Of a stretch of 64,000 nucleotides of DNA, positions 14,251-61,818 are shown one piece after another (the stretch's first letter is position 1; each line of letters starts with the position of its first letter). Origin of the DNA: Promethearchaeia archaeon (lineage in GTDB: Archaea; Asgardarchaeota; Lokiarchaeia; Sigyniarchaeales; SOKP01); NCBI GenBank assembly GCA_029856145.1, contig JAHQWK010000016.1, positions 1 to 64,000 of the forward strand, written 5' to 3'. The notes under the pieces are model-generated. The model was given only the letters and a program-made list of their open reading frames with translations. It was not told the DNA's origin and did not search any database. Made by a program: the position numbers and the translations under genes.

Positions 14251-14357
14251 TGGCGGGCTATAGGGGAATCGAACCCCTGACCTTTCTTTTTAAGGGAGAT
14301 CTTCCCATAAATGTCAGGTTAAAAGCCTGCTGCGCTACCTGCCTGCGCCAATAGCCC
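14251..14357 (-). tRNA. tRNA-Lys(UUU) with 30-nt non-canonical intron at about 44/45 (14283-14312); CCA encoded
   Basis: Acceptor GGGCUAU/AUAGCCC, anticodon loop CUUUUAA, T-arm AGGGG-UUCGAUU-CCCCU; hairpin insert at the start of the variable loop. Confidence 0.9.
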
Positions 14358-14482
14358 ATCAAGAATTTTCTTAATGTTTAAGCGTGAATTGTATAAGTAT
14401 AAATCTATTATAATATAAAAATTTTATTTAAATTAGTTTCTTTCCTCCACATATAAATTAACCTATTTAAAACTATCAAGAT

Positions 14483-15508
14483 TTAAGCCCTTTTAATGAA
14501 ATGTTCAAATCCATAATTCTTTATTTCTTTTTTTTCACCCTCTTTAGAAATAGATACATATACCTCAGAAATTACTTTTCCGATTTTAAAAATATGCCCC
14601 CCAATAGATTGAATTTCTTTTTGGGCCTTATTGAAATCTTTAGGATTAATTGTAAAGAGATGAATAAATTCTTCCCCTCCATTTAAAACTAATTCTTCTA
14701 AAGAAACATTAAATTCATTTGAATAATTAATTGCTTCTGTATCAATTAAATTGTCATTAAATTCGATTTCAAATCCTAGACTTGGATTTGAAATCATTAA
14801 ATCTTTTAAAGATTTGTATAGCCCATCAGAGGAATCTATGCTAGCAGTAGCTAAAATCTTTTCTGATAATATAAATGCTTCATTACCAGAGATTACAGGT
14901 TCTAAAACACTCATTATTGATCTTTTATATTCATGAAAATCTTTGAGATCTCCCTTCTTTTTTAAGAGAATATTAAATCCTACACCAGTCAAACCAAACT
15001 TATTATTAGCAACTAAAATATCATCCACCTTTACACCTCTTCTATAGATTATGTCTGAGGGTTTTTTAAAGCCAAAGACAGTAGGACTTATTATTAATTC
15101 TTTTGTTTCATTAAGATCTCCACCAATGTAATCCATATTATATTTCAAACTGCAATCAATAATACCATTCAATAAATCGATGAACTCATGTTTTTTGAGT
15201 TCTTTTGGTAAACCCAAAGATATAATCAAACCCCTTGGTTTAACGCCTTTAACTAATAAATCACTTAGATTCATTATAACCGATTTTCTACCGATTTGAT
15301 AAGAATTCATTTGGGGTAGTACATCAGTTGTAGATACTAGCATATCAGAATTTAAAACAATATTCCCTTCCAAATTCTTATTTTTAAAATCAAAAAAGAA
15401 AGAATCATCGCTCAAAAGTTCTTTTCCAGATTTTTTTAAAACCAAATCTTCTATAATTTTTATTAACTTTTTTTCACCAAGCTTTCCTATCTGAAGATTA
15501 TTTTTCAT
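14483..15508 (-). CDS. thiL: Thiamine-monophosphate kinase
   Basis: LGEKKLI, NLSDL, IGGDLN, SIDSSDGL, GGEEF. Confidence 0.9.
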   Translation of the reverse strand: MKNNLQIGKLGEKKLIKIIEDLVLKKSGKELLSDDSFFFDFKNKNLEGNIVLNSDMLVSTTDVLPQMNSYQIGRKSVIMNLSDLLVKGVKPRGLIISLGLPKELKKHEFIDLLNGIIDCSLKYNMDYIGGDLNETKELIISPTVFGFKKPSDIIYRRGVKVDDILVANNKFGLTGVGFNILLKKKGDLKDFHEYKRSIMSVLEPVISGNEAFILSEKILATASIDSSDGLYKSLKDLMISNPSLGFEIEFNDNLIDTEAINYSNEFNVSLEELVLNGGEEFIHLFTINPKDFNKAQKEIQSIGGHIFKIGKVISEVYVSISKEGEKKEIKNYGFEHFIKRA

Positions 15509-15576
15509 TAGATAAAATTTAAAATTTTTATACGATTATGATTTTTGAATAAACTCGCATTATTAAGAATTACTCT

Positions 15577-15666
15577 GCCTCTGTTGCTTAGTGGTATAGC
15601 GTCAGATTCGTATTTAAATATAGATGAAAAATCTGAAGATCGGGGGTTCAAATCCCCCCAGAGGCT
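15577..15666 (+). tRNA. tRNA-Thr(CGU) with canonical 37/38 intron of 18 nt (15613-15630)
   Basis: Acceptor GCCUCUG/CAGAGGC, anticodon stem UCAGA/UCUGA, central helix UUCG/UGAA, bulges UA|U and AA|A. Confidence 0.92.
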
Positions 15667-15670
15667 CTAT

Positions 15671-16687
15671 TCATACTTCTTCTGTAAAAACATAACGTTT
15701 AATCATTTGTAAGGCAAGCATTTTAAAAGCACCATTTATATTTTCACCCGTTTTAGCCGATGTTTCAATATATGAAAGATTCAATTTTTTTGCGAGTTCT
15801 TCTCCTTGTTCAGTGGATATAACGCGATTATCTTCAAGGTCTATCTTATTTCCAACGAGAATCATTGATATTGTTTGTGAAACGCTTTTGATTTCTTTAA
15901 ACCAACTTTCTAAACTATCAAGAGTTTCTTTACGAGTAACATCATAAACTAAAATACCCGCTTCAGCATTTGCAACATATTTTTGTCTCACTCGTTTAAA
16001 CTGTGCTTGTCCAGCTAAATCCCAGATAACAAAACGAACTTTTGATTCTAATCCTTGAAATTCACATTCTTTTTTCATTATTGATGTGCCTATTGTAGAT
16101 TTATAATCAGTCTGAAACGAATCTTCAACAAAACGATGAACCATACTTGTCTTTCCTACTCCGCCTTCACCACCAAGGATTAGTTTAAATGCATATTCAC
16201 CAGATTGTATCTTAATTTTCTGCAATTTATCTACTTTCCTTTGAATATTTTGAGATTCTCTCTCAACGATTAATTTAGGAATTACTGGGCTTACTGATCT
16301 TCCATCAAATATTCTAGCAATTTTCTCAGCAGCTAAATATGCATAGGGAAAAACGGGATCTACCATAGCAACTGAACTCAATACAGTCACAAAAATTGCC
16401 TCAGGGCCAGCCTCACAAAAAATGAATCTTTGCTCTTCTGTATCAAAGGTTCCAGTTCCAAAAGAACCAGAACTAAACTCTTCTGTGATTCTAGTCAAAA
16501 CAGGTTCTACTAATGCACTGACTCCTCCAATGACATCTTCTTCTACCTCTGCTTCTGAAAATCCTTTTAATGCAGACATTACTAACCCTTCTCTATTTAC
16601 AATAAGAGTCGCGATTAAGTTTTCTCCAACTTCCTGCTTATACCATTTAAGTAGTGCTTCAAGTTTTTTTCGATCGACAGACATCAA
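15671..16687 (-). CDS. Roadblock/LAMTOR-like domain fused to Rab-like small GTPase
   Basis: N-terminal LIVNREGLVM roadblock pattern; GEGGVGKT, STIG, WDLAGQ, GNKID, ETSAK. Confidence 0.9.
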   Translation of the reverse strand: MMSVDRKKLEALLKWYKQEVGENLIATLIVNREGLVMSALKGFSEAEVEEDVIGGVSALVEPVLTRITEEFSSGSFGTGTFDTEEQRFIFCEAGPEAIFVTVLSSVAMVDPVFPYAYLAAEKIARIFDGRSVSPVIPKLIVERESQNIQRKVDKLQKIKIQSGEYAFKLILGGEGGVGKTSMVHRFVEDSFQTDYKSTIGTSIMKKECEFQGLESKVRFVIWDLAGQAQFKRVRQKYVANAEAGILVYDVTRKETLDSLESWFKEIKSVSQTISMILVGNKIDLEDNRVISTEQGEELAKKLNLSYIETSAKTGENINGAFKMLALQMIKRYVFTEEV

Positions 16688-16915
16688 CTCACAACCTTTT
16701 TACTTTGTTTGCAAATGTATTATAAAATAACTGAAATATATTATTTTATATAATACGTTTGTTTTAAAATTTATAGAAAACGAAAATATTCGATAGAATT
16801 AGAATTTAAAGTTCAGATTTAATAAAATAAAATAAAAGTAAAAAAATTTTAAAAATTAATTTCATTATCTTATTTCATCAACTCTAAATGATTAGAGAAA
16901 AAATTGTTTCATAAT

Positions 16916-17088
16916 GCAGGAGTTGCCAAAATACTACGTAATTCTACGTTTATGGCTAAGCCTGGTCTACGGCGCTAGAATAGTACGTAATAATACGTTT
17001 ATGGCGTAACTGAGGCTCTAGTGACATAGGTCTTCGAAGGAAATGCTTCCTCGGCCTAAATTCGTGGGTTCGAATCCCACCTCCTGCA
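16916..17088 (+). tRNA. tRNA-Leu(GAG) with three BHB introns (16930-16959, 16979-17008, 17033-17060)
   Basis: Removing the three inserts gives GCAGGAGTTGCCAAGCCTGGTCTACGGCGCTAGACTGAGGCTCTAGTGACATAGGTCTTCGTGGGTTCGAATCCCACCTCCTGCA, a complete class II cloverleaf. Confidence 0.92.
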
Positions 17089-17318
17089 CATTATTTTTCA
17101 CATTAATATATTTAAATTAATATTGAAAGAACGAGTAAAAAAACCAAATTCTAACCATAAACCTCATTAAACAGCCTAAGGATATTTTATTTTTAATTTC
17201 TTCGCTTTATGTTACCTAACTTAATATTTTGATAAGTTCGATTTCTATAATATGAGAATTTATATTTGTATCAATTCTTTAATTAATGAATTAGAATAAT
17301 ATTTAACAAATTTTTTGA

Positions 17319-18551
17319 GTGATTCCTATTTCAAATTTACAATTATATAATAAGCAGAAAACTATGGAGCATATTCAATCTTTAACATTTAACCGGACAG
17401 CTTCATCTACAGGAGAAACTGAAGCATTAAATTATATAGAGAAAGAACTAATAGAAAAAAATATCCATCCCGAAGTTGAACATTTCAATTGGACAGGCCC
17501 AATAACGGTACTTATGAGGACAAGCTACCTTCTTATAATAGTTAATTTAATACTTTTCCGTATGATTTTGCTTGTTATTGCTTATTTCATTGTAAAATAT
17601 TCGTTTGCAAGCTTACGTGAAATGAGTTTCATAAATAGTGAAGAGTCCAAAAACATCTTTACGTTAATTAAAGCTAAAGAAAAGGTGCCAAATAGACCCT
17701 TGGTAATAATAACTGCTCATTATGATTCCATTTCGGCAAATATACCATATAGATTGCAGGTTGTTATCTTTTTCATTTATAGATTAATAGTATTTTTTTA
17801 CATTATAGTCTTTGCAGTTTTTATAACTATTTTTTTCCTCGATCTTCTTTTAATAATCTCTGTTTCTAATCTATTAGTAGTTTTTATAGCTTTTTCTTCA
17901 GTTGGCGGAGTGTTGATTTCAATCCCCATTTTATATATAGTATTTAAAGAACGCCCATCATCAGGATCAATCGATAATGCAAGTGGAGTAGCAATTTCAA
18001 TTGAATTGGCAAAGATTTTCAAAAAAAATCCACTCGAAAATATGGATATTCTGATTTTATGGCCTGGAGCCGAAGAATGGGGTTTAAAGGGATCAAGAAA
18101 ATTTTGTAAAAGTCATTTTAAAAGTCTGAAAAAGCTTTATGATCTTGACAGGTCATTTAATATAAATATTGACATGGTTGGTTCTTATATAGGGCTTTTA
18201 AATAAATCTGGATTAATTTTTAGAAGTAAAATGAATAACAATTTAAACGAAATATTTGGAGCAACAGCAAATCAATTAAATATTCCATTAGAAATTTATA
18301 ACAAGATTATTAAACCTAAAAGTGATTATAAATCCTTTGAAAAATATGCTAAAAAAACAAAGAGTAAATTTCAAGTAAGTTGTTTTCATTCAAGTAAGGA
18401 TTCAAAATACATCCATTCATTAAGCGATACACCTGACAAATGTTCTTTAGAAAACTTAAATGGTTGCGTAAATATTTGTCATCAAGCTTTAAGAAGTATT
18501 GACTTAAGGATAGAGGGCGTTAAAAGAAATCAGATAACTTATGTTGCCTAA
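17319..18551 (+). CDS. Membrane-embedded M28 family metallopeptidase
   Basis: TAHYDS, DNASG, GAEEWGL, NIDMVG, IHS..D; TM insertions. Confidence 0.88.
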   Translation: MIPISNLQLYNKQKTMEHIQSLTFNRTASSTGETEALNYIEKELIEKNIHPEVEHFNWTGPITVLMRTSYLLIIVNLILFRMILLVIAYFIVKYSFASLREMSFINSEESKNIFTLIKAKEKVPNRPLVIITAHYDSISANIPYRLQVVIFFIYRLIVFFYIIVFAVFITIFFLDLLLIISVSNLLVVFIAFSSVGGVLISIPILYIVFKERPSSGSIDNASGVAISIELAKIFKKNPLENMDILILWPGAEEWGLKGSRKFCKSHFKSLKKLYDLDRSFNINIDMVGSYIGLLNKSGLIFRSKMNNNLNEIFGATANQLNIPLEIYNKIIKPKSDYKSFEKYAKKTKSKFQVSCFHSSKDSKYIHSLSDTPDKCSLENLNGCVNICHQALRSIDLRIEGVKRNQITYVA

Positions 18552-21500
18552 TTTTTGGATTATTTGTTAGGCTTTCTACATATTCCTCAATTAATTCCAT
18601 TCTTTGCTTAGTATAGTTATCTAAATTAAAATCTGTACAAATTTTTAAAGCACGAGGTATATATTTTTCAATACCCCCGCGATTTACTGTCAGAATAATT
18701 CTATTTCCACATTTAGGACATTTTCCACTGTTTACTAAAGGGGGACGTCTGAATTTTTCATTACACTTGACACAACGAAAACCTTGAATAGCAAATTTTC
18801 TCAAATTACCTAGTATATCTGGATTGAAATGAGTTGTTAAAATCTTTTCAGCTACTTTCTTCGCCTCCACTGCTTTAATAAGTTTTGCTAAGTGAAGTTG
18901 AGCTTCAATTTTATCATCCATTGACTCATATAATTTATAAGCTGTTGTCGTTGGGCCCTTATTAATATTTGTTGTTGGGATATTGTATCCAATATTTTCA
19001 TATTGTCCAGATGTTCCTAGACGACTTTTAACTAGGTTCATTAACGATTCTATCTCAGATGGTGTACAATATCGTTCTGTTGCTTCATAAAACTCTAATG
19101 GATATTTATCTAAAGTGTCTAAATTGTGAGCTTCGACATCAATCTCATTAGGATCTATTTTTGTACTAATTACTAAAGTTGCATCCATTCTTCCACCAAT
19201 TTTGCTTGGAAGATAGTGTCTTGAAAAATTCAATAAAGGATCTAAGAGTACCATAACACCATCTTCGTCTCCATCACAGTTTCGTCTTTTTGCTGCATGC
19301 CAATATGGATGAGCATATATGGCTCTCGCAGAGGTAAATCCAATAATTCTACCTATTATTCCGGCACTAGTATGAGGGGCTAATCCTACAGCTAGATGTC
19401 CTAATAGGTCTTCTCTAACTGATACATTATAGAAACGCTCCTTTTTATAAAATAACTCCAATTCGTCATCAAGAAAATTAGCAACTTTAATAAAGTATTT
19501 AGCACAATCATTAGAAAGAAGAATATCTTGAACTTTCAACTCTAAAATCTGATTTTCATCATTGAGAGGATTTCCATTAATATCCTTTTTATATCCCATC
19601 TCTCTTAATTTCTCTATAGGAGTGTCAATTTCTTTTGGTTTAAAATGAGTTAAAGGTATATCTGTAGCATCATATCTTATCTCAGCAGTTTTATAAACTA
19701 AAACATCATTTTTTGCTCTTAATAATCCTTTCTCTATGGGTTCCGGAACTTTATACTCATTAGTTAAACCAATAATACCTTTAAATTTTGGAGGGAATAA
19801 CATATTAAGTGATTTCAAAGCTGAGTTTACATACTTTCTTATATTAAATTTTGCTTCATTTGATGTTTTCAAAGGCTCATGACATCTTGAACATTTTTCT
19901 TCGAAAGTAGGATAAAGTATCTTACATCGTGAACATATTTTCTGTAATTCAGTATGACCTCCACAGCTATGGCAGATATTAAAAATGCTTGATTTTCCAC
20001 AGTTCATACATTTTTTCCTACATACATCAATTTTAACCTTACCGGTTTCTACAGTATTATTTTTACTTCCAAAATCGAAAGATTTCTTTTTTTTGGAGCC
20101 AAAATCATCACCATTTTGTCTTCGTGCACTAAATCCCATTGCTTTTTCAAACAATCTTGAATTACCAACAACATTACTCAAAGGAAATAATGCCTGAATT
20201 CCTTTCATACTTTTTCTTTCTGATTTTTCTGGTCTGCCCATTCGAGATCCCATATAGTATGGGGCTTTATTTTTGATTTTAAGTGAAGAAAGTTTAAAAA
20301 AATACGTAAAAACATCATCATCTTTTTCTATTTCTATTGGTTTTTTATCTTCAAGGTTAAATATTTTTTTATATATAAAACTCCTTTTTAAACTTAACAA
20401 CAATTCATTATCCTTTATTTTATGGGGTATAAATGCTTTTTCTAGAATTTTCTTAATTGTTTTTTCATATTTTAAGGTAATTCTTTGTTCAGATTCTGAA
20501 AAATTCTTGATAAGTGCATTTCGTAATAGGTCCAATTCCTCTAATGTTATATTGCCCCAAAAATCTAAATAATAAGGATGTAAAGGAATATCATAATTCC
20601 TTGAAATCTCAATTGCCTCTGCTGCTGTAGGAATATTTTCAAATGGATTTTCAATCAAATTTTTTAGACTTTCATCAATTATGTCAATATCTTTAATAGA
20701 TTTTTCCAGTTCTAATGCCCACCATTCTTCTACATACCCTGATGGTATTAATATATGGTTATTTTCTGTAAATTCCCCATAGCCAAAGAGTAGATCTCCT
20801 AAGAATAATATTTTTTTAATGTCAGAAAATATTTGTTTGGCTTTTATAACATTTGAAACTTTTATCACATCACCATTCCTCAGTTTTACAATAGGGGGCT
20901 CAATACTATCCACGGGGCATACACTTGTACTTTTTCCAGGACGTTCAATTCTTAATTGCGTTCCAATTGCTACAAATTCATCTAAAATTACCATTGTTGC
21001 GGGATGAATTCCTCCCGCAGCTAAACCAGTATTTCTGGATCGCCCATACCTTATTCTATGACCTCCTATTCTTGAAGGATGACTGAATACTGGCCGTCCG
21101 GCAATAATATCCGCAACATACTTAGAATTTGGGGGGATTTTATTTTCTTCTTTTAAAACTTTTTTTTTTTCTTTTTCTATCTTTTCTTGGTTTTGAGCAA
21201 TTTTTTTCAATTCGGCAAGCCAATTCCAACCTTCTAAATTCATAGCATTAGCAATTTTGAGTAATTTTGGGGCTTTTAGAAGAAAACCATCATTTAATAC
21301 TAAGCATGCTCCACCTCTTATGTGATTTGTTTCAATCCGAGGTAAATCTCTAAATGCAGAGACTTCTTCATCTTCAGTTGAATCACCATTTATTTCTATT
21401 GGCAAATGACTTACAGCATATCTAATTTCTTTGTTCGATGAAGGATATTGTAAATGGACTCTTCTATCATATAGTTTGACTTCTTCCACGTATCTCCCAA

Positions 21501-22041
21501 TTTCAGCTTCAGTGGCTTCATATTTAGGAATTTTTGACTTTCTTCTTACAAAATCTGCAATTAATACACATAAAGCTGCTGTTGTTCCTCCAGCTGCTCT
21601 AATTGGACCTGCAAAATATAAGGATAAATATTTTCTACCAGAACTATCTTCTCGAATTAAGATCTTAGAGATACCTTCAAGCGGTGCACTCACAACTCCC
21701 ATAGTTTTTATAGCTAGTCCAATTCTTATTGCTCTATCTACTCGGGCCTCTATAGATTCAAAATTTCCAATTTTATTATCTAAAATATCAGCAACTACCT
21801 TGAAGACAAGTTCATCTTCAGTTAAACCTTTCCTTTTTAATGTTCTTATTACTTCTGCAACACCTTTTGGACCTACAAGCTTTTCAACTCTACCAGCTAA
21901 ATCTTTTGCTTGAGGAGACTCTACTTCTAATTCAGGATCAAGTCCTTTCTGACGTGCGTGTTCTGCAATTGAATAGCATTCATCAACTTGTTTTTGAATA
22001 GAATTAAAGTATAATTCCATTGTTTTACTAATATCTGCCAT
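18520..22041 (-). CDS. polC: DNA polymerase D large subunit DP2
   Basis: YFAGPIRAAGGT, AAKRRNCDGDED, C-terminal zinc finger and PIP box QHKLSDFF. Confidence 0.98.
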   Translation of the reverse strand: MADISKTMELYFNSIQKQVDECYSIAEHARQKGLDPELEVESPQAKDLAGRVEKLVGPKGVAEVIRTLKRKGLTEDELVFKVVADILDNKIGNFESIEARVDRAIRIGLAIKTMGVVSAPLEGISKILIREDSSGRKYLSLYFAGPIRAAGGTTAALCVLIADFVRRKSKIPKYEATEAEIGRYVEEVKLYDRRVHLQYPSSNKEIRYAVSHLPIEINGDSTEDEEVSAFRDLPRIETNHIRGGACLVLNDGFLLKAPKLLKIANAMNLEGWNWLAELKKIAQNQEKIEKEKKKVLKEENKIPPNSKYVADIIAGRPVFSHPSRIGGHRIRYGRSRNTGLAAGGIHPATMVILDEFVAIGTQLRIERPGKSTSVCPVDSIEPPIVKLRNGDVIKVSNVIKAKQIFSDIKKILFLGDLLFGYGEFTENNHILIPSGYVEEWWALELEKSIKDIDIIDESLKNLIENPFENIPTAAEAIEISRNYDIPLHPYYLDFWGNITLEELDLLRNALIKNFSESEQRITLKYEKTIKKILEKAFIPHKIKDNELLLSLKRSFIYKKIFNLEDKKPIEIEKDDDVFTYFFKLSSLKIKNKAPYYMGSRMGRPEKSERKSMKGIQALFPLSNVVGNSRLFEKAMGFSARRQNGDDFGSKKKKSFDFGSKNNTVETGKVKIDVCRKKCMNCGKSSIFNICHSCGGHTELQKICSRCKILYPTFEEKCSRCHEPLKTSNEAKFNIRKYVNSALKSLNMLFPPKFKGIIGLTNEYKVPEPIEKGLLRAKNDVLVYKTAEIRYDATDIPLTHFKPKEIDTPIEKLREMGYKKDINGNPLNDENQILELKVQDILLSNDCAKYFIKVANFLDDELELFYKKERFYNVSVREDLLGHLAVGLAPHTSAGIIGRIIGFTSARAIYAHPYWHAAKRRNCDGDEDGVMVLLDPLLNFSRHYLPSKIGGRMDATLVISTKIDPNEIDVEAHNLDTLDKYPLEFYEATERYCTPSEIESLMNLVKSRLGTSGQYENIGYNIPTTNINKGPTTTAYKLYESMDDKIEAQLHLAKLIKAVEAKKVAEKILTTHFNPDILGNLRKFAIQGFRCVKCNEKFRRPPLVNSGKCPKCGNRIILTVNRGGIEKYIPRALKICTDFNLDNYTKQRMELIEEYVESLTNNPKIRQHKLSDFF

Positions 22042-22280
22042 AAAATTCCCTATTTTTAAAGTCGAGAAAAACTAATATATTAAAACTAAGAGTTATTATA
22101 CTAATTTTCTGAATTTAATTAAATTCATTTATTAATCAGCTATTTCTTTTATAAATTTAGGGAGAATGCTAATTTTCTACAGACTCTACTTATAAAAGGA
22201 AATTTGTTTTTCCTTTAATAAAAAATGATTTAATTTCATACTTCAATTAATATAATAATTCCATTGTAAACGGTATAACA

Positions 22281-24074: not shown

Positions 24075-24113
24075 TTATTCTTCTTAAATTATAAAAAACC
24101 TAAATCAACTACT

Positions 24114-26098: not shown

Positions 26099-26135
26099 TT
26101 ATGACTCCGCTACTCCATCATTTTTTTATAAATTT

Positions 26136-26187
26136 TTGCACTCGAAATTTTTAATATTCAATTACATAATGAAAATTTCAATTGCAT
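26136..26187. promoter_or_regulatory. Inverted pair of mini-ORB-like motifs upstream of cdc6 (candidate Orc1 sites/oriC)
   Basis: TTGCACTCGAAAT at 26136-26148 and ATGCAATTGAAAT on the minus strand at 26175-26187, next to a very AT-rich tract. Confidence 0.4.
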
Positions 26188-27831: not shown

Positions 27832-28269
27832 ATGAGGAAAGCAGGTTATAAATTTTTAGATCACACCGCTGATGTTTCAGTCGAAGCTAAAGGTACAACC
27901 TTAGAAGAAGCTTTTGAACAAACCGTTTATAGCTTAATGGAAACAATTACTCCTAGTTTAAGATCAATATCACCTGAAATTGAAAGAATCATAACAATTG
28001 AAGCAGAAGATAAAGAAGCTTTATTATTTGACTTTTTAACAGAATTTCTTTACATTTTTGACGTAGACGAACTAATTTTTAATGAAATAAAAATTCATCC
28101 AATAAAAAAAGATCAAAAAAAATATTATCTAAAGGCCGTTGCAAAAGGAGAAAAGTTTGATAAGCTCAAACATGAACCCGGTACTGAAGTTAAGGCTATA
28201 ACTTATTCTTTTATGAATCTTGAAGAAAAAAAGAATAGAGTTAAAATAAATATTGTATTTGATATTTAA
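27832..28269 (+). CDS. Archease (RtcB cofactor)
   Basis: YKFLDHTADV and EVKAITY signature. Confidence 0.95.
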   Translation: MRKAGYKFLDHTADVSVEAKGTTLEEAFEQTVYSLMETITPSLRSISPEIERIITIEAEDKEALLFDFLTEFLYIFDVDELIFNEIKIHPIKKDQKKYYLKAVAKGEKFDKLKHEPGTEVKAITYSFMNLEEKKNRVKINIVFDI

Positions 28270-28293: not shown

Positions 28294-29766
28294 TTATCCC
28301 TTTACTACACCTATTGGAACTAGTCTTACTATTTTTTCAACGATTCCAAGATCTTGGCTGACCTGAACAACTTGATCTATATCTTTATATGCACCAGGGG
28401 CCTCTTCAGCGATTATCTTCATCGAAGCAGCTCGTATCATGATACCTTGTTTACTTAAATTGTCTTTAACTCGCTCTCCCCAATATTTCTTAGTAGCTTT
28501 TGTTCTAGACATTACTCTTCCAGCACCATGCGCTGTAGAACCAAATGATAGATCCATTGCATTCTTTTTACCAACACAGAGATAAGATGCAGAACCCATC
28601 GTTCCTGGGATTAATACAGGTTGTCCTATAGATTTATACTCAGGCGGTAGATCAGGATGATTTGGCGGAAATGCTCTTGTAGCACCTTTTCTATGAACAT
28701 TTAATTTCATTTTTTTACCATCAATTTCATGTTCTTCTATTTTTAAAATATTATGGCAAACTCCATAGATTAAATGTAAACCTAAAGTGTCTATATCCTT
28801 TCTTAAGGTATTCTGAAAGGACTCTCTTAACCAATGCGTAATTAATTGACGGTTGGTAAATCCAAAATTAGCTGCACATGCCATTTGTTTTAGATAGTTC
28901 TGTGCTTCAGGTTTATTTGCTGGAACACATGCTAATTCTCTATCAGGAACTTTTATATTGTATTTTTTCATTGCTTGTTCGATATTGCGCAAAGAATCTG
29001 TACATACTTGATGTCCAAGAGCTCTGCTCCCTGTATGAACCATAACAGTAACTTGATTCTTCTCATGTATTCCTAAAGTTTTAGCAATACTTTGATTATA
29101 AATTTCATTAACTTTTTGTATTTCTAGAAAGTGATTTCCACTTCCCAAAGAACCAAGTTGTTTTATAGCACGTTGTTTTGCTTTTTGTGAAACTAAACTA
29201 GCATCTGCATCCTTTAAACATCCATTTTCTTCTAAATGTTTAAGGTCCTCATCAAAAGCATAATCGTTGTCTACTGCCCATTTCACACCATTATTTAAAA
29301 CTTTATCTAATTCTGAATAGCTTATATTTAGTTTACCTTTCGATCCCAAACCTGAAGGAATATTATCAAAGATTGTATTCAACAGATTAGGAAGCACACT
29401 CTTAATATCTTTAAGAAATAAATTTGATCTTAATAATCTTACACCACAATTAATATCATATCCAACACCCCCGGGAGAAATCATTCCATTCTCTGCGTCT
29501 GTCCCAGCAACACCCCCGATACAAAAACCATATCCCTGATGAGCATCTGAAAGAGCAATAGCATGTTTTTGTATCCCAGGTAAACAGGCAACATTACAAA
29601 TTTGATCTAGAGTCCTATCTTGCTTTATTTTCTCTAAAATATATTCATTAGCATAAATTTTTACGGGGACCCTCATCTGAAATTTTTCGATATTTCCTTT
29701 AACCCGTGTCATTAATGTCTTTGGAGGAATCTCATAGATATTGTCATCAATTTTATTAACATTCAT
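28294..29766 (-). CDS. rtcB: RNA-splicing ligase RtcB
   Basis: DAHQGYGF, GVGYDINCG, GSGNHFLE, HTGSR, HRKGAT, HGAGR. Confidence 0.98.
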   Translation of the reverse strand: MNVNKIDDNIYEIPPKTLMTRVKGNIEKFQMRVPVKIYANEYILEKIKQDRTLDQICNVACLPGIQKHAIALSDAHQGYGFCIGGVAGTDAENGMISPGGVGYDINCGVRLLRSNLFLKDIKSVLPNLLNTIFDNIPSGLGSKGKLNISYSELDKVLNNGVKWAVDNDYAFDEDLKHLEENGCLKDADASLVSQKAKQRAIKQLGSLGSGNHFLEIQKVNEIYNQSIAKTLGIHEKNQVTVMVHTGSRALGHQVCTDSLRNIEQAMKKYNIKVPDRELACVPANKPEAQNYLKQMACAANFGFTNRQLITHWLRESFQNTLRKDIDTLGLHLIYGVCHNILKIEEHEIDGKKMKLNVHRKGATRAFPPNHPDLPPEYKSIGQPVLIPGTMGSASYLCVGKKNAMDLSFGSTAHGAGRVMSRTKATKKYWGERVKDNLSKQGIMIRAASMKIIAEEAPGAYKDIDQVVQVSQDLGIVEKIVRLVPIGVVKG

Positions 29767-40580: not shown

Positions 40581-41030
40581 ATGTGTGCTGAAGAATTTGC
40601 AAGCTTCTTAGATAGTACTCGAAAAGCACCATTGGAAGAAAAACTAAATGCTTTTGGTGATATTATTGAAAAGATAATGTCTATTATCTTACGCATCCCT
40701 GATTTGGTTGATCAATCCTTAGGCTCAGTAAATGAGAAAGTATCAAATTTACAAAACCAAATTAATTCTCTGAATAGTCAAATAACATCAGGTCAATTAA
40801 GATCTGGAGGTGCTCCAGCAACAGCGACTCTTGCACCAGCTGGTCCAGCGGCAGCACGTGCACCCGGAGGTCCACCTCCACCACCACCTAGTGGTCCACC
40901 CGGAGGTCCACCCGGAGGTCCAGGTCCTGCCCCTACTCCTGCCCGTCCGGCAAGTCCAGTATCACTTAGAGGGGCAATTATGGGAGAATTAAAGAGTCTA
41001 TTTGCTAAGCGTAAGACCCAATCTGGATAA
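40581..41030 (+). CDS. Coiled-coil, polyproline and C-terminal WH2-like helix protein
   Basis: GGPPPPPPSGPPGGPPGGPGP tract followed by SLRGAIMGELKSLFAKRK. Confidence 0.7.
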   Translation: MCAEEFASFLDSTRKAPLEEKLNAFGDIIEKIMSIILRIPDLVDQSLGSVNEKVSNLQNQINSLNSQITSGQLRSGGAPATATLAPAGPAAARAPGGPPPPPPSGPPGGPPGGPGPAPTPARPASPVSLRGAIMGELKSLFAKRKTQSG

Positions 41031-41310: not shown

Positions 41311-41921
41311 TTAGAACTCTAAAAATCCAGGATCATCAAAAATATCATCAATTTTTCGTTCTTTCTTTATCTTTGTATCCGTTTCAGCAAATAAGGATTC
41401 TTCATCAGTTCTAACCCCCCGTTCTAGTTCTTCAGTATCACGTTTTAATAATGCATCTTTTTCAAGCTGTTTATATTTTTCCGATCGTATTTTCCAATTA
41501 TCAACTTCATCCAAATTAACATTATCTTCTTCTAATAATATCGCTGCTTTTGTTTTACATAGATCTGATAAAATAGAATAGGATAGAATAATATCTCCCC
41601 ACTCATTATCTTCTTTTAAACTAACAATCCGTTTTTCTAATCTTAGTAATTCTTGGTCTGCATAATATATATCAATAAAATCCCCAAAAGCATCAACGGG
41701 TTCTGAGATTGAATTTACTAATACTTCTTTTGTTAAATCACAATTTCCACATTTTACAGTAGCAAAGGCACCTTTCTTCTTAATATCAGTGACTTTTACG
41801 CTTTTTTCACCGCATTCCATGAAAAATTGGAAATCAATTATTTTCATTCTGGACAGGTGAAAATTTTTGGTACTCTCTTAACTCTTTTTGGTGATACTTG
41901 TTTACGTTTTCTTCTTCCCAT
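41311..41921 (-). CDS. elf1: Transcription elongation factor Elf1 with C-terminal extension; two exons (41847-41921, 41311-41814), 192 aa after splicing
   Basis: Exon 1 MGRRKRKQVSPKRVKRVPKIFTCPE; exon 2 CGEKSVKV...CGNC...EPVDAFGDFID. Confidence 0.9.
41815..41846 (-). other. 32-nt BHB intron in elf1 mRNA
   Basis: Exon helix UUUUCACC/GGUGAAAA, central CCAG/AUGG, bulges AA|U and AA|U, inner hairpin GAAAA-U-AAUUG/CAAU-UUUUC. Confidence 0.85.
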
Positions 41922-43221: not shown

Positions 43222-43223
43222 AA

Positions 43224-48901: not shown

Positions 48902-48919
48902 TAAAAACAAAAGGTATAA

Positions 48920-51042: not shown

Positions 51043-51070
51043 AAGTAATAAAAAAATTTAATATAAAAAA

Positions 51071-51490: not shown

Positions 51491-51554
51491 AATCCATCAG
51501 AACTTTTTTAGTTATTAATAATATTATACTCTTTTGCTTTTATTCTTATTTTAA

Positions 51555-52211: not shown

Positions 52212-52312
52212 TTTTAATGTTCAGATAATATTGTGAATTCAATAGGATATAAAAATAAAGACTTATTCCTTGATAATTTTTATGAATTCGAATAAGAAAT
52301 ATAGGTATGAAT

Positions 52313-53248: not shown

Positions 53249-53434
53249 CTTAAATCACTTTATATTGTTTTCGTGCTTCTATTAAATTAATTATAAAACT
53301 CAAAAATTTAATAATTTAAAATTATCATCCTTCATAATTTTTACTTTTTGTTTTTCTCTCGTTATTAATTTACTCTTTAGGATTTCAATATATAAAAATT
53401 AAAGAAAAATAAAGATTCAATTAAAATTATAAGA

Positions 53435-54436: not shown

Positions 54437-54642
54437 ATTTGGAATATTTAATTTTTTAAAAGAATGATTTTTTAATAAAATATAAAATTAAAGATTTAAA
54501 ATTTTATTGAGTATTGTCTTGCTAATTTTTTCTTACGTTTACTAAAATATTCTCCTAATACTTATTAATCTTAAATTAAGAAAAATATATTAAGCCGAAC
54601 TATACTAGGTTATTAAAGTTAAAGATTTTGTTGGTGTATTTT

Positions 54643-54810
54643 ATGAGTGAAGATGAAATTGAAGATGAGAATGAAGATGATATATCATTGGATGAAGAGC
54701 GAAAGAAATTAAAAGAGATGGGTGTCAATAGTACCTGGGATATCTTAACAACTGGTGAAAAGAAAAAGAAAGAACCGGAAGAAAAAAAAGAATTTATAGG
54801 ATTCAATTAA
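54643..54810 (+). CDS. Small acidic/charged protein
   Basis: ATG at 54643 after GGTG; MSEDEIEDENEDD... Confidence 0.55.
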   Translation: MSEDEIEDENEDDISLDEERKKLKEMGVNSTWDILTTGEKKKKEPEEKKEFIGFN

Positions 54811-54935
54811 TTTCTTTGATTCTTGTAATCTCTATTTATTCTAAATATAATAATAAACTCATATATGCAAAAAATTTAATTGCTAACCAATATAATAATC
54901 TAACAATTTAACATGAAATTTAAATTGATGGATAA

Positions 54936-56561
54936 TTGTCTACTCCTGTTTCAATTCACGATGGACCATTTACCACTAATACATTAGTATCAAAAATTTT
55001 TCTTGTTTTTTATAGTATTATCATCTGGTGCTCAATATTACCATTGCTTTTGGAATTATATTTTTTTTGGAAAATAATTGAATTTAATATATCCTTATTC
55101 ATTTGTTTATTACCAATTCAAATTTATTTTGGGTATCTAATTTTAGTTTTCACTTCCATTTTAATAGCAAAACTTTTTTTGATCACAATCAACCTCATTC
55201 ATAAACCTAAGGAAGGAGTCTTTAAGAGAATTAACCAGGACCCTGATTACTATTTTTGGAGCCTAAGAGCAGTTATTAAAAAGTGGCCAATATGGGTTTC
55301 TAAATTCATTCCTTTACCGTTTACTGATAAAATAAACTCAAGATGGTTTGAAAATGATTCAGAATTTATTAAATATGGAAAAAATATTTCAATCGGTAAA
55401 GGAAGTTCAGTAAAAGCGAGTATGGTTTTTAGCGATTTTTTAATTATTAAAAAAGTCAATATTGGAGAAAATGTAATCATTGGCTCAAATTCTTTCATTG
55501 CCCCTGGAACTCAAATCGGTAAAAATGTTATTATTGGAACGATGTCTGCTACTAAATTCAGTCAAACCTTAAAATCAGATTCCATTTACGCAGGTTTTCC
55601 CATTGAACGATTAAAAAACCAAGATTATTCCACATATGATTCCATTGAAAAATTAAGAGAAACCTTAACGAGCACAATTAATTTTAAAGATGATAGTTGC
55701 GATGATGTTAAATTAAATCTAAATCGTCTACAAGGAGAGAAATTTATGAAGAATCTAAAGTATGATTTGCTAATCTTTGGTTTAATCTATTTTTTATCTA
55801 ATGCAATACCCATTTTAGGAATAATCTATTTTGGATCAGAATTATTCATTCCATTTTTTCTCCAAAATCCCAATTTATTTTCTATTTTTACAAACGTACT
55901 CTCACTCACAGTTTTTCTTTTAACTCCTTTAATTCTTATCATCTTTTATATAATAAACTTATTAGGAGTAATCTTCTTTGGAAAATTATTTTATAGAATC
56001 ATGCTGTATATAAAACCTAGTGAAGAAGGAATTTTAGATTGGCAGAATAAAGATAAGGACTTTATATATTACTTCAGACGCTCTTTTCTAATAAGATATG
56101 TCAAATGGAAAGTACAAAAAAGTCCCTTTCCATGGTTAATAAAATTCGCTTATAATAATATTGGGAATTGCCAAATTGGTAGAAATACGGTGATCGAAGA
56201 TTCCTTTTTAGCAAAAGAATTTTTAGAAGTGGGAAACAATGTATATTTAGGAAAAGTATTAATAGCAACTCATTTATGGGATAAAAATTTATCTATAAAA
56301 AAGATTATTATAGGAGATAATGTAGTCATTCAAGATAATTCCTGCATTGCTCCAGGTACAGAAATTGAGGAAAATGTATCTTTATTTCCATTATCAATAA
56401 CGGTTAAATGTGAAAAACTTATAGCAAATTCATTTTACTTAAATACTCCTTTAGTAAAAATTAGCAACGAGGAATTAATCAATGCTTTTAATCTAAACTT
56501 GTATGATATAAATCCTAAAAAAATCAGTTTAAAAAGAGATGAATCCTATTATAATTACTAA
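54936..56561 (+). CDS. Membrane protein with two left-handed beta-helix (hexapeptide) modules
   Basis: Repeated TM + KPKEG + IGENVIIGSNSFIAPG units. Confidence 0.8.
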   Translation: MSTPVSIHDGPFTTNTLVSKIFLVFYSIIIWCSILPLLLELYFFWKIIEFNISLFICLLPIQIYFGYLILVFTSILIAKLFLITINLIHKPKEGVFKRINQDPDYYFWSLRAVIKKWPIWVSKFIPLPFTDKINSRWFENDSEFIKYGKNISIGKGSSVKASMVFSDFLIIKKVNIGENVIIGSNSFIAPGTQIGKNVIIGTMSATKFSQTLKSDSIYAGFPIERLKNQDYSTYDSIEKLRETLTSTINFKDDSCDDVKLNLNRLQGEKFMKNLKYDLLIFGLIYFLSNAIPILGIIYFGSELFIPFFLQNPNLFSIFTNVLSLTVFLLTPLILIIFYIINLLGVIFFGKLFYRIMLYIKPSEEGILDWQNKDKDFIYYFRRSFLIRYVKWKVQKSPFPWLIKFAYNNIGNCQIGRNTVIEDSFLAKEFLEVGNNVYLGKVLIATHLWDKNLSIKKIIIGDNVVIQDNSCIAPGTEIEENVSLFPLSITVKCEKLIANSFYLNTPLVKISNEELINAFNLNLYDINPKKISLKRDESYYNY

Positions 56562-57282
56562 CAATTTAGTAGAAGAAAAGAAGATTTACTGGCTCTATCC
56601 CATTTTAATTTGGTTATCATTTTTTCCTACAAGTCTAATTTATCTGTTTTTCTTTAATTTTTTCTCATTTTGGATTGATCCTATATTTATTATTTGCTTT
56701 TTACCAATTTCACTTGTTTTATATTATCTAGTTTTTATTCTCTTTCTTCTACTATTTGCTAAATTAATTTTAATCCTTCTTAATATGATTAATAAACCAA
56801 AAGAGGGGATATTTCAGAGAAATTTCCAAGATAAAAATTATCGTTTTTTTGTTATAAGAACATGTCTAAAGCGGTTTGTTCTAAAAATATATAATTATTT
56901 TCCTTTACCTTGGGCAAAAATTCTTGCGTTGAGATTATTTGGGGTAAAAATCTCTAATAACACAGGGATATTAGACAGTTTTATTGATTCCGATTTTATT
57001 GTAATCGGTGATAATGTTATACTAGGGGAAGGTTCACTTGTAATGAATTCAATGATTTTAGGGGATTATTTATTAGTAAGAAAAGTTATTTTAAACCGAG
57101 GGTGCACTATTGGCGCATTCAGTGTAATTGCTCCTGGAACTATCGTAGAAGAAGGAGCAATTCTGGGAATGGGAAGTTATACATATTTAAACCAACGACT
57201 TGAAAAGAATTATATTCATTTTGGAAGACCTGCGAAGAGATGGAAAAAAATTGAAGATAATTTTACATTTTCCAAAAAATAA
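56539..57282 (+). CDS. Membrane protein with one hexapeptide-repeat module (paralog of upstream gene)
   Basis: KPKEGIF, IGDNVILGEG, IGAFSVIAPG, GRPA. Confidence 0.8.
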   Translation: MNPIIITNNLVEEKKIYWLYPILIWLSFFPTSLIYLFFFNFFSFWIDPIFIICFLPISLVLYYLVFILFLLLFAKLILILLNMINKPKEGIFQRNFQDKNYRFFVIRTCLKRFVLKIYNYFPLPWAKILALRLFGVKISNNTGILDSFIDSDFIVIGDNVILGEGSLVMNSMILGDYLLVRKVILNRGCTIGAFSVIAPGTIVEEGAILGMGSYTYLNQRLEKNYIHFGRPAKRWKKIEDNFTFSKK

Positions 57283-57339
57283 TTATACTTCATAAAATTA
57301 GATTAAAATATTAATATAATAATTTCGGAAGAAAATCAA

Positions 57340-57606
57340 ATGAGGCATAGGGTATATTGTCCTACATGTGAGCAAGAGGTTGTATTACGTAGAAAAAATT
57401 TTGATCACATCTATCACGAGGTACTCTTATTCCTCGTTATCCTAACATTAGGTTTAGGTTTTATTATTTACCTTATTTTGAAATATAGTAAAAAACCAAA
57501 CACGTGCCCAAATTGCGAAACTGCATTTGATTTAGATAACCTTCCCTCCCAAAATATAAAAGTCACTAAGACTTTAGGTACAAGAAGTAACTTTATGCCT
57601 CCTTAA
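57340..57606 (+). CDS. LITAF-like zinc-ribbon membrane protein
   Basis: CPTC, hydrophobic segment, CPNC. Confidence 0.7.
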   Translation: MRHRVYCPTCEQEVVLRRKNFDHIYHEVLLFLVILTLGLGFIIYLILKYSKKPNTCPNCETAFDLDNLPSQNIKVTKTLGTRSNFMPP

Positions 57607-57859
57607 CTTTCATTTGTTTATTACATCTAGGACAAGTTTTATCAATATCAGTGAGCTCCTTTTTCATGATAGTTTTTTGATATTTGCATTTTGCACTTGA
57701 ACAAACAAGTGTATATTTTGTCAACTGAATTGATGGTTTTTCATGATGTTTCTTTTGTACATTTTCACTTTTACTTTTTTTGGTTTGATCGGGCGATTCT
57801 TTATTTTTCTTTGTTTTCTTAGTGTCATCTTCTGACTTGAGCCATTTATCTAAACCCAA
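57593..57859 (-). CDS. Small basic protein with C-terminal zinc ribbon
   Basis: MGLDKWL N-terminus; CSSAKC...CPRC. Confidence 0.65.
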   Translation of the reverse strand: MGLDKWLKSEDDTKKTKKNKESPDQTKKSKSENVQKKHHEKPSIQLTKYTLVCSSAKCKYQKTIMKKELTDIDKTCPRCNKQMKVKEA

Positions 57860-57977
57860 TTGAACTCACTTTAGAAATTTCTTATTTTATAAAAACTTAA
57901 GATATGAAATTAATTAATTGCTTCTTATAAATAAAAGAAGAGAAAAAAATAAAAATTTGTTTATCAAGAATGATTTG

Positions 57978-59222
57978 TTAAAAGACTTGAACCTTACCTG
58001 CAATAAGTCTTTTTCTTAAATCAATGAAATTCTCCTTACTAAGGCTTTCAGCTGAAACTTCTTCTGCTATTTTCTTTACTGAATCAAAGTTTACATTATC
58101 AGCTGGGATCAATTCGATAGAATTAACCCAAGGGTCCGTTATGGGGCGTCCTATTTGAGATAATAATTTAACATGTGCTTCTATGATATCGCCTTGACCT
58201 CTTTTAATGATCTCTCTTGCCATCTCTGTACCTAATACATTATATAGTTTTCCTACATGGTTTATAGGATTCTTTCCACAAACAGCTTCTAAACTCATTG
58301 GTCTACAAGGAGTAATAAGTCCGTTAGATCTATTGCCACGACCTACTTCTCCGTCATCACCAGCTTCAGCAGATGTCCCAGTAATTGTCAAATACACAAT
58401 ACCCTTTTCGATCTTATCAGCAACATTTACTTGGCATGTTACATCGCGTTCTGGGATAATATCTGCGGCTAAATCTAAAACTGCTTCTTTGATTTGATTG
58501 GTGTAACTTATATATTCACTGGCATCGTTGATATATTTGCTAATCATTGCAGCGGCAACAGTAATTCCGACTTCATTTCCATTTCTCTCAACCATTATCT
58601 TAACATCTTCCCCTGAAGCATTACATTTATCTTTGAATTTATCGGAATTAATCAACCTTTCTGCTTCTAAAGTTATCTTCTCAACATCCGAATTAGGAGC
58701 ATATCCTACTCCAAAACTAGTATCATTTGCAAGTGGAACTTCTTCAGTATGATGAGATTCATCAAAAACCCCTGTTAAATCTATTGAACCAGGTCGGACA
58801 GCATAGTCAAATTGGATATCCTTGTTTAAATCGAGGTTTCTAAAAATATTGGAAAGTACTTCACGTTGGGTTTCTATACAAATAATCGGAATAGGAATAT
58901 ATTCCAGTTTATTTGTGCCATCACCGCATTCTATAAGAATTTGATTTATTGCTCGTCCAACAATCAGAAAATATTGTGGTTGGATTATTAGACCCCCACC
59001 ATACTCTGGTTTCGCAGTCCCTCCAACTAAAGCTGCCTTATCAACATTATGGTGGTATATTCGGTCAAAATTCTCAAGATAATAAAGGCACAGAGCTCTA
59101 GAGCAAGCATCAGCAACTGCGTCACAAACAGTATCAGGATGTCCGATTCCTTTCCTTTCACAGAGTTCTGGGAAGTCACTCTTTTCAATTGGTAAAAAAT
59201 GAGCCTTCGAAATTTTCAACAT
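57978..59222 (-). CDS. mat: S-adenosylmethionine synthetase (archaeal type)
   Basis: [33 protein letters not shown]. Confidence 0.96.
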
Positions 59223-59396
59223 TTCAATTAACCATCTTATATAAATAGTTCTTTTAAATATGTTTTTAAATTAATTATCAGTTAAATTCCTTATTAAATG
59301 AAAAATGCAATTAATACATTTCATTATAATTTTTAATTAATAACTTTTATAAATATTTCGTAATTATAATATGCATAAAAAGCATAAAACTAATTC

Positions 59397-59993
59397 TTGG
59401 AAATAATGGAAAAATTACCTGATTTGAGCAAAATCAAAGAATTACGAAAAAAGTTAAATATTAGCCAAAAAGAACTAGCAGAAGAGCTTTCAAAGATTGA
59501 AGAATTAAATGTTCCTCAATCTACAATTTCTAGAATAGAAAGGGGAACAATTGATCCTCCATATACCAAATTCAAAAGAATTTTTGAATATTTAATTAGT
59601 AAACGTAAGGAAAAAGAAGAGTCAATTAAAATTGCCGAAGATTTTATGACCCAAAATATCAAATCCATAAATTCTAGCTCTACAATAAGAGAAGCAGTTA
59701 ACTTAATGAATGAAAATGAAATCTCACAATTGCCTATAATAGAAAATAATCAGAATATTGGAAGTATAACATCAAAAAAAATACAAAAATACATCACAGA
59801 TAATCCAAAAATTATCAATATGGATGTATCGCTAATAAAAGAATTACCATTTCCAGAAATTGATAAAAATTGGAATGTGAAGGATATATCTGATTTACTT
59901 CTAAAATATCCTGCTGTTTTGGTGAGAAAAAATAATGATTATATTGGAATAATCACTGATTCAGATCTTCTTAGATTACCTAATAAAAAATAA
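59397..59993 (+). CDS. HTH-CBS domain transcriptional regulator
   Basis: SQKELA...QSTISRIERG HTH; CBS pair (ISQLP, GIIT.SD). Confidence 0.9.
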   Translation: MEIMEKLPDLSKIKELRKKLNISQKELAEELSKIEELNVPQSTISRIERGTIDPPYTKFKRIFEYLISKRKEKEESIKIAEDFMTQNIKSINSSSTIREAVNLMNENEISQLPIIENNQNIGSITSKKIQKYITDNPKIINMDVSLIKELPFPEIDKNWNVKDISDLLLKYPAVLVRKNNDYIGIITDSDLLRLPNKK

Positions 59994-60110
59994 GAAAATT
60001 TCGAAAATCTATCAATTTTCCAAGGTAAAAGCTATATATTTGTAAATTGATATTACTTAATACAAAAAAGAATAATTTTTTTATGCAATATTGATTTTTA
60101 AAGATTAGAT

Positions 60111-61112
60111 TTGACGATTGAAAAAATCCTTCAAAGGATTGATGGTTTATTAAAGAAGGCTAATTATGAAACATTAGCACTGGGAAATTTTGCTATTAAT
60201 AAATGTAAATTCTGTTTTGATCTTTTAGTTAAAAAGGAAGATTTGGTCTTTAGTGTTAAAATCTTTCCCAATATAGATAACTTAAACCAAAGCGTTATTC
60301 ATGATATTAAATCTTTATCCTTAATCCTTAAATCAAAGCCCTTATTAATTGGAATCAGAAATCGGTATCAAAAATTAGAAGACAATACAATTTATGTAAG
60401 AGAAGGCTTACCCTTTATAACACTTAATACATTTGAGAATATACTCAATGAACAGTACCCTCATATCTTAGCAAGAAGAGGTGGTGGAGTAGTATTTTTA
60501 GATGGTACATTAATGAAAATTTTAAGAGAGAAACATTTAATAACACGAAAAGAACTTTCAGAAATCTTAGGAGTGACCAAGCGAACTATTTCTTCATATG
60601 AAAATGAATCTATGCGACCTTCCGAGAAAATTGCTGAAAAAATATTAGAAATCTTAGAAAATAATAATCTCTTTAAGAAAATGAATCTTTTTGAATGGAC
60701 TATTAAAGATAATATAGATGAAAAAGGAGTCTTAGAAGAAAAAGAATTAAGCCAATTTGAATCGCATGTTCAAGATATAATAAAAGATATTGGGCTTTCT
60801 TCTTATTGGTATAAAAAAGGATCTATTCCTTTCAAATTATCTTTATACTCTCAATCAGATAAAATAAGGTTAGATGACTTTTATCCTCTATTTTCTGGTA
60901 TATCTGAAGAACAGGGAAAAATTAATCAAATGAGCTTTCAATGCTTGAAGTTGTTTACAGATTTATTCCATAAAAATTCACTTTTCATAATTGATAATGA
61001 TATTAAAATTCCTGAGCCGTTTAAAAATGCAAATATCCCTATAGTTAAAATTAAAAATTTAGAAAAAGTTGATGACGAGGAAGAATTCGTTGAACTCATT
61101 CAAGAATCTTGA
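60111..61112 (+). CDS. Archaeal HTH transcriptional regulator (nuclease-like domains flanking an XRE HTH)
   Basis: CFDL...NIDNL, ARRGG, TRKELSEILGVTKRTISSYEN. Confidence 0.85.
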   Translation: MTIEKILQRIDGLLKKANYETLALGNFAINKCKFCFDLLVKKEDLVFSVKIFPNIDNLNQSVIHDIKSLSLILKSKPLLIGIRNRYQKLEDNTIYVREGLPFITLNTFENILNEQYPHILARRGGGVVFLDGTLMKILREKHLITRKELSEILGVTKRTISSYENESMRPSEKIAEKILEILENNNLFKKMNLFEWTIKDNIDEKGVLEEKELSQFESHVQDIIKDIGLSSYWYKKGSIPFKLSLYSQSDKIRLDDFYPLFSGISEEQGKINQMSFQCLKLFTDLFHKNSLFIIDNDIKIPEPFKNANIPIVKIKNLEKVDDEEEFVELIQES

Positions 61113-61818
61113 GGATGAAATAGAACTAATATGTGGGATAGACGAGGCTGGTAGAATTTAATTCGCTTCGAATTATATGTTAAAAGGCTCTGTCTTAGGC
61201 CCTATGGTTTTATGTGGAATTTGTTTCAATAAATCAAAAATAAACTTATTATCTGAAATAGGTGTTAAAGACTCAAAAAAATTATCTCCTATAAGGAGGA
61301 ATAAATTAGCTAATCTCTTGAAAAATTACTGCCACTCATATAAAATCGTTATAATTAGTCCTCAGGAGATTGATGAGAGAGAAAGTAAAAAAATTACATT
61401 GAATCGACTTGAAGAATTAAAAATGGCAGAGATTATCAACACACTGAAACCAGATGTCATTTTTATAGATGCTGTGGATGTAAATGAAGAAAGATTTGGA
61501 CATTCTATAAAAAAATTATTGAATTATATTCCTAAAAAAATAATTTCTGAACATAAGGCTGATGACATATATCCAATAGTTTCAGCAGGTTCTATTATGG
61601 CTAAAGTTAAAAGAGATTCTCTAATTGAAGAACTTCATAAAAAATATGGAAATTTTGGTTCAGGATACCCTTCTGATATTAGAACAATTGAATTTCTTAG
61701 AAATTATGTAAAAAATAATAAGAAACCACCTAAAATCGCAAGGAAATCATGGAATACAACTAAAAGAATAATAAATGAAGAGTTATCTACAAAAAAAATA
61801 ACTGATTTTCTTAATTAA
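61090..61818 (+). CDS. rnhB: Ribonuclease HII; two exons (61090-61154, 61185-61818), about 232 aa after splicing; start codon uncertain
   Basis: Spliced ICGIDEAGRGSVLGPMV, VKDSKKLS, IDAVD, HKADD, GSGYPSD, RKSW, PIP-like KITDF. Confidence 0.93.
61155..61184 (+). other. 30-nt BHB intron in rnhB mRNA
   Basis: Central UGGU/GUUA, bulges AG|A and AA|A, hairpin AUUUAAUUCG-CUU-CGAAUUAUAU; contains in-frame TAA. Confidence 0.85.

Follow-up and report, generated by a model that had tools for sequence, protein, structure and literature searches.

Short bulge-helix-bulge introns in tRNA and protein-coding genes of a Lokiarchaeia genome, and exchange of the elf1 intron between lineages

To our knowledge, protein-coding genes of archaea are taught as intron-free, with cbf5 as the exception. 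We analyzed a 64-kb stretch of DNA (hereafter the window) that opens contig C18 in a Lokiarchaeia metagenome-assembled genome (MAG; 3.55 Mb, 30% GC, 97% complete, 5% contamination), in which short inserts with the bulge-helix-bulge (BHB) anatomy of tRNA introns interrupt three tRNA genes and two protein genes, elf1 and rnhB. The precise precedent is the cbf5 pre-mRNA of Desulfurococcales and Sulfolobales, where a short BHB intron lies in a protein gene and its splicing was proven (Watanabe 2002; Yokobori 2009, PMC2738675). In both systems the intron interrupts a protein gene at a conserved catalytic motif, and both have a hetero-oligomeric EndA, relaxed motifs, a variable interior, and gains as well as losses. 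They differ in that one gene is concerned there and at least 15 unrelated genes here, in an Asgard lineage, with a uniform length of 28-32 nucleotides (nt) and a loop ending in UC; further, splicing was proven there and is deduced here. A paper from 2020 knew of no mRNA case before its own other than cbf5, and added one intron in Haloferax HVO_1309 (PMC7714728). The latter is likewise an EndA substrate in an mRNA, but it lies in the 5' untranslated region of a single gene and breaks no frame.

Multi-intron tRNA genes are known from Thermoproteales and from Asgard archaea. An Asgard preprint of October 2026 (10.64898/2026.10.13.758758) describes genes of this kind that resemble ours: the introns occupy non-canonical sites, one tRNA can hold several of them, their boundaries are of BHB type, and annotators miss them. 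Its median intron lengths are 22-23 nt, in contrast to 30 nt here, and it describes no strain-level recombination patch. It covers tRNA only (the words 'mRNA' and 'Loki' do not occur in its text) and presents the arrival route of BHB introns as the central open problem. In the searchable literature a coding-region mRNA intron is reported for only one other archaeal gene, and no report of Asgard mRNA introns was found, most subscription journals lying outside the search. New here are a motif-free genome-wide census with a negative control, a failed test for a sequence family, biases in loop and position, and a strain-level recombination patch.

All seven inserts of the window were recovered at the lengths of the original prediction (tRNA-Lys 30 nt, tRNA-Thr 18, tRNA-Leu 30, 30 and 28, elf1 32, rnhB 30). 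The same holds for its four introns of 30 nt, whose inner segment measures 23 nt, and for the AA end in six of the seven. The proposed division into 1 nt, hairpin, 4 nt and 2 nt was present but is not distinctive alone: a relaxed descriptor gave 1.7 million matches. Two 3-nt bulges on opposite strands surround a 4-bp central helix, with exon and intron helices flanking it; this helix is complete (4/4) in tRNA-Thr, Leu introns 2 and 3, and rnhB, where three of the pairs are G-U. Removal of the introns yielded three complete tRNAs in ARAGORN, Lys(UUU), Thr(CGU) and Leu(GAG). The last was complete only with all three introns cut out, and the uncut gene was missed by both Rfam and ARAGORN. The tRNA-Lys site is common to all 8 related loci reaching that point (labels on related loci are Promethearchaeota/Lokiarchaeia); the hairpin covaries, and the central helix is better there (3/4 or 4/4) with the register unchanged. 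For the inner hairpin of the tRNA-Thr intron no stable fold was found. The genome has two tRNA-Thr(CGU) genes, the one in the window and one at C22:988-886. Five related loci syntenic with the former (L275-L279) have another exon sequence and, near the junction of D-arm and anticodon arm, a 28-29-nt intron, not the 18-nt canonical one. A tRNA with anticodon UAU at C8:10419-10595 also carries three introns; that of the anticodon loop is long, parses poorly and may be nested.

As had been claimed, the mRNA copies sit in conserved motifs (CPE^CG of Elf1, DEAG^RG of RNase HII and, elsewhere in the genome, the P-loop of eIF2-gamma). Spliced RNase HII is intact and aligns across the joint with intron-less homologues. 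The intron occupies the same site in 23/23 readable genomes of the genus versus 0/6 loci of other families, and intron-less alleles also exist farther out. One copy measures 29 nt, so the intron cannot be protein-coding. Among 21 distinct rnhB introns, 79 of 84 central and 171 of 189 inner cells were paired, compared with 21-39 and 62-82 after sliding. The stop is kept in relatives as TAA, TAG or TGA, and the UC loop end in 21/21 copies, while the other three loop bases vary. For rnhB, elf1 and the tRNA-Lys relatives the BHB structure is kept by compensating changes, although both-side changes are few and the sequences are related. Among the best 120 RNase HII protein matches 79 begin within the intron, and none has the joined DEAGRGS. 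We also noted a Pro-to-Ser change (GP to GS) just past the joint, in the exon-exon helix, only in intron-bearing alleles; all 23 intron-less matches read GP. In the rnhB of G021 (L020) the usual intron is followed by an N run and by additional AT-rich sequence ahead of exon 2; this may be a second insert or a gap in the assembly. A second RNase HII-family domain with an RNase HIII-like motif lies at C18:144667-145191 (minus strand) within a 587-codon open frame.

Spliced Elf1 is likewise intact and aligns across the joint with intron-less homologues. Of 79 related loci, 20 carry its intron; it is 30-32 nt long there, its hairpins are homologous and covary, and the exon-exon helix was more stable in intron-bearing than in intron-less alleles (-10.1 versus -4.9 kcal/mol). 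It is polymorphic within the species, as strains L260-L263, L266 and L267 are without it. These conspecifics are 99.8% identical to the window at elf1 codons 45-190 and show about 10 differences in the next 3.4 kb, but only about 80% identity over exon 1. L265 has the window allele in an independent assembly (99.7%). Between the start codon and a point 47 bases beyond the intron, the window is identical to the intron-less allele of another species, L271, except for two bases and the intron itself; outside this patch L271 is 80% identical to the window. The window's patch is the imported one, because the conspecific strains share their 5' type with the nearest relatives. Only for this allele is the direction of exchange clear.

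A tree of the 3' part of elf1 required 14 changes for the intron-bearing alleles, and their single clade was rejected (approximately unbiased test, p-AU = 7e-8). Among the nearest pairs of intron-bearing and intron-less alleles about four independent ones showed flank exchange, and about six differed with matching flanks, which we read as precise gain or loss of the intron. Flanking exon sequence was thus co-converted, as in homing introns, both at the window's patch and in those four or so pairs. These alleles firmly indicate horizontal exchange of the elf1 intron at the same site between lineages by recombination; we do not claim a homing drive. In L264 (JGI 3300032170), another species, elf1 exon 2 is 99% like the window and both sides about 80%, and the whole gene appears to have been exchanged between lineages as well. 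The joined elf1 junction was also found in two long contigs; these are DNA, genomic intron-less alleles and not transcripts.

To obtain a census free of motif assumptions, we aligned proteins from 2.8 of 4.36 Mb of G032, a genome of another family, to this genome (373,700 aligned codons), with all inserts of 1-120 nt penalized equally. Of the frame-breaking inserts, the seven with the best flanks measured 30 nt (eIF2-gamma), 30 (pyrG), 28 (rpl11), 32 (elf1), 30 (rnhB), 30 (cold-shock protein) and 30 (NifU-like gene), so the best results of the search for gaps in protein homology that had been called for were all of 28-32 nt. All seven had BHB structure, compared with 0.46% of random segments, and this parse gains weight because the inserts fall exactly on breaks defined by homology. 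The reciprocal census found no such insert in 267,721 codons of G032. The BHB descriptor search proposed at the outset was too noisy as a finder, alone or with ranking by rescue of the open reading frame (ORF) and energy, and a UC-loop descriptor gave 5-6 frame-rescuing matches versus 0-3 for control loops and missed known cases. Eight hosts were added, in part by descriptor and frame rescue together: uppS, mevalonate kinase (MVK), a histone, an FAD oxidoreductase, an acyl-CoA mutase subunit, a zinc-ribbon gene, a membrane gene on C32 and, less securely, an ABC ATPase on C9.

In total 15 protein genes carry an intron, as expected if further frame-restoring inserts existed genome-wide. This is a lower bound; we estimate a few tens of genes, below 1% of all. 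The claim that many split genes hide introns therefore holds for their mis-annotation as truncated or split, but its extent is modest. For thirteen genes the spliced product could be aligned through the joint with homologues or paralogues; UppS and MVK were judged by known motifs. Boundaries defined by homology agree with the BHB register, and a cut after the second bulge base restores RNA or frame. No convincing case of a stop-free in-frame intron was found, and intron patterns were not found in viral contigs. Besides its intron, the eIF2-gamma gene (C5:33824-35422) has an N-terminal extension; this is about 110 residues long, and C3 holds a stretch paralogous to it.

Table 1. Positions of the features discussed. 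Positions without a contig name refer to the window.
Feature	Position	Strand	Remarks
tRNA-Lys(UUU) gene	14254..14357	-	Rfam; spliced form is a full ARAGORN tRNA
tRNA-Lys intron	14283..14312	-	30 nt; start of variable loop; relaxed BHB; loop AGAUC
tRNA-Thr(CGU) gene	15577..15667	+	Rfam; ARAGORN on spliced form
tRNA-Thr intron	15613..15630	+	18 nt; canonical 37/38; central helix 4/4
tRNA-Leu(GAG) gene	16916..17089	+	three introns; ARAGORN after removal of all three
Leu intron 1	16930..16959	+	30 nt; D-arm; 83% like intron 2
Leu intron 2	16979..17008	+	30 nt; anticodon stem
Leu intron 3	17033..17060	+	28 nt; variable arm
elf1 exon 1	41847..41921	-	25 codons; ends CPE
elf1 intron	41815..41846	-	32 nt; frame-shifting BHB; splits first zinc knuckle; first codon a stop; census insert
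elf1 exon 2	41311..41814	-	Pfam PF05129
elf1 recombination patch	41768..41921	-	2 differences to intron-less allele of other species; ~80% to conspecific allele
rnhB exon 1	61120..61154	+	catalytic D and E of DEAGR; start codon position approximate
rnhB intron	61155..61184	+	30 nt; in-frame BHB; TAA as second codon; census insert
rnhB exon 2	61185..61818	+	Pfam PF01351, E 2e-42
Archease	27832..28269	+	RtcB cofactor; Pfam PF01951, E 7e-43
RtcB RNA ligase	28294..29766	-	presumed exon ligase; Pfam PF01139, E 2e-170
Roadblock-domain Rab-like small GTPase	15671-16687	-	eukaryotic-signature-type protein; between tRNA-Thr and tRNA-Leu
cbf5	13131-14135	-	uninterrupted; directly downstream of intron-bearing tRNA-Lys
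eIF2-gamma insert	C5:34200		census insert
pyrG insert	C23:64816		census insert
rpl11 (uL11) insert	C28:14768		census insert
Cold-shock protein insert	C6:11627		census insert
NifU-like gene insert	C10:33334		census insert

The genome encodes two EndA subunits. EndA alpha has the Tyr/His/Lys catalytic triad and a loop matching the crenarchaeal-specific loop (best match PDB 3p1z chain B, E 1e-34), and EndA beta is a structural subunit without the His. The crenarchaeal-specific loop is needed for activity of broad-specificity EndA (PMC2724299). The host thus appears to encode an EndA able to cut relaxed motifs, plus a ligase; the genes of RtcB and archease adjoin in the window. In the mechanism that we propose, the last intron bases would pair in the precursor with the four exon bases before the 5' bulge, the two-subunit EndA would cut each 3-nt bulge behind its second base, and the exons would then be joined by RtcB and archease, with the frame restored. 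Unspliced mRNA would meet a stop within a few codons. Introns may be kept since they are seldom deleted precisely and an imprecise loss from a conserved motif would destroy the protein. They may travel between lineages at the same site within short patches of homologous recombination, as in the elf1 case, and may also be gained or lost precisely. Copying to a new site would be occasional, most likely where the 3' strand of the intron pairs with the target, and the stems would then drift.

In HAC1/XBP1 mRNAs, Ire1 cuts at two stem-loops under stress regulation, and in animals RtcB ligates XBP1. The original prediction had compared the introns with this system. The likeness is loose: proteins alone cut and join an mRNA with a shift of frame, the XBP1 intron is similarly short and the type of ligase is the same, but nuclease and cut signal differ, as the junctions here form one BHB for EndA and not two stem-loops.

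It was further proposed that one mobile family of introns is actively spreading from tRNA genes into mRNAs. We find this doubtful. In its favour, lengths have a common mode of 30 nt, found in 12 of 26 tRNA introns (18-43 nt) and 7 of 14 mRNA introns (28-32 nt), and both kinds mostly start with A and end with AA or AU; the UC loop typical of the mRNA introns occurs in some tRNA introns too, and there is one copied pair. The 26 tRNA introns were curated by hand, as automatic parsing mis-set several boundaries; this may favour neat BHBs, and some tRNAs were not located. The sequences speak against such spread. Mean identity between tRNA and mRNA introns was 0.350, equal to that of hairpin-preserving shuffles (0.350), and the best cross pair reached 0.66 (p ~0.07). 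No tRNA/mRNA pair reached 70%, no pair from different host genes reached the 80% or more seen across host genes in transposing tRNA-intron families of the Thermoproteales type, and no free intron copies were found elsewhere in the genome. The sole related pair, Leu introns 1 and 2, lies within one tRNA gene; each 3' strand fits its own target and the likeness persists in relatives, so that we read the pair as the product of a single copying into a new site. The Asgard preprint likewise finds almost no copying between tRNA types (10.64898/2026.10.13.758758). The two may still have an old common origin that drift has erased. The introns of tRNA and mRNA are, in our reading, a class by size (about 30 nt, 9-bp stem, 5-nt loop) and shape and not a sequence family, and the mobility for which we see evidence is of another kind, namely exchange at the same site between lineages. 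Ribozyme cores and GT-AG ends, as in group I, group II or spliceosomal introns, were not found in these inserts of 18-43 nt, which start with A or U and mostly end with AA or AU, and Rfam gave no intron-family match within the window.

Two biases suggested that the mRNA introns may form a regulon, in which a factor would read the UC loop and gate splicing of 5'-proximal introns as a switch resembling the unfolded protein response. The last two bases of the five-base apical loop are UC in 7/7 census introns and in 12/14 mRNA introns versus 6/21 tRNA introns, and in rnhB this end is conserved as described above. Further, 14 of 15 mRNA introns lie within the first 46 codons (Kolmogorov-Smirnov p = 0.002 for the census seven). 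We nevertheless consider a regulon quite improbable. The host genes have mixed functions, conspecific strains and 59 of 79 related loci are without the elf1 intron, whose orthologues mostly have a loop ending in CC, and a 5' bias is also expected from loss mediated by complementary DNA from the 3' end.

That the inserts stay unspliced, and ribosomes bypass them by hopping or read-through or restart within them, seems highly improbable. An ATG within the rnhB and elf1 inserts does yield truncated ORFs that are listed in databases, but lengths of 28-32 nt would demand different frame shifts, a restart would forfeit the catalytic D/E and the zinc cysteines, and neither the precise BHB geometry nor the pairing between exon and intron would be accounted for. 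Pseudogenes or assembly artefacts are hardly credible: the second RNase H-family domain could make rnhB dispensable and the MAG is partly contaminated, but the same insert recurs in dozens of independent assemblies with both exons conserved, several host genes are essential and single-copy, and the pseudogene reading is untenable because eIF2-gamma, PyrG, uL11, UppS, MVK and Elf1 have no second copy in this genome.

Overall, we consider it very likely that the inserts are true archaeal BHB introns, in tRNA as well as in mRNA. Splicing of these mRNAs by EndA and RtcB, as originally predicted, is very likely in view of the BHB anatomy, frame restoration, conservation and enzyme genes. One may go further and suppose genome-wide protein-only mRNA splicing in this Lokiarchaeia family with actively mobile 30-nt introns, where a factor recognising the UC-loop hairpin would insert them at conserved 5'-proximal sites and drive interspecies homing without an intron-encoded nuclease; this we regard as unlikely. 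Homing introns and inteins occupy conserved motifs, are distributed patchily and carry a short foreign flank along with them. The introns studied here resemble them in all three respects; unlike them, they encode nothing, as an ORF is impossible in 30 nt. Several points weigh against our interpretation. The central helix is imperfect in Leu intron 1 and elf1 (3/4) and in tRNA-Lys (2/4), the elf1 region is mosaic beyond the intron, including upstream, so that the patch may reflect general recombination and not intron-driven homing, and reverse transcriptase, Y1 transposase and LAGLIDADG_3 were not found in the genome (other nuclease families were not searched). Splicing is read from DNA alone, and p-values across relatives are overstated, as relatives are not independent.

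Two further features of the window were noted. The gene cbf5, the one in which an archaeal mRNA intron was already known, has no interruption here. A stretch of 71% GC (40766-41021) stands out from the 30% GC genome, within a 149-residue ORF (40581-41030) with an Ala/Pro/Gly-rich tail.

In summary, an Asgard archaeon appears to rely on tRNA-type splicing for core translation, nucleotide and lipid genes, which would mean routine mRNA splicing, independent of the spliceosome, in the prokaryotic group closest to eukaryotes. Annotation pipelines truncate intron-bearing genes and so distort Asgard gene inventories. The polymorphic elf1 intron in its short foreign patch makes intron arrival testable in population metagenomes. 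If UC-loop introns were indeed mobile, they would represent a second, independent route to intron-rich protein genes beside the eukaryotic root.

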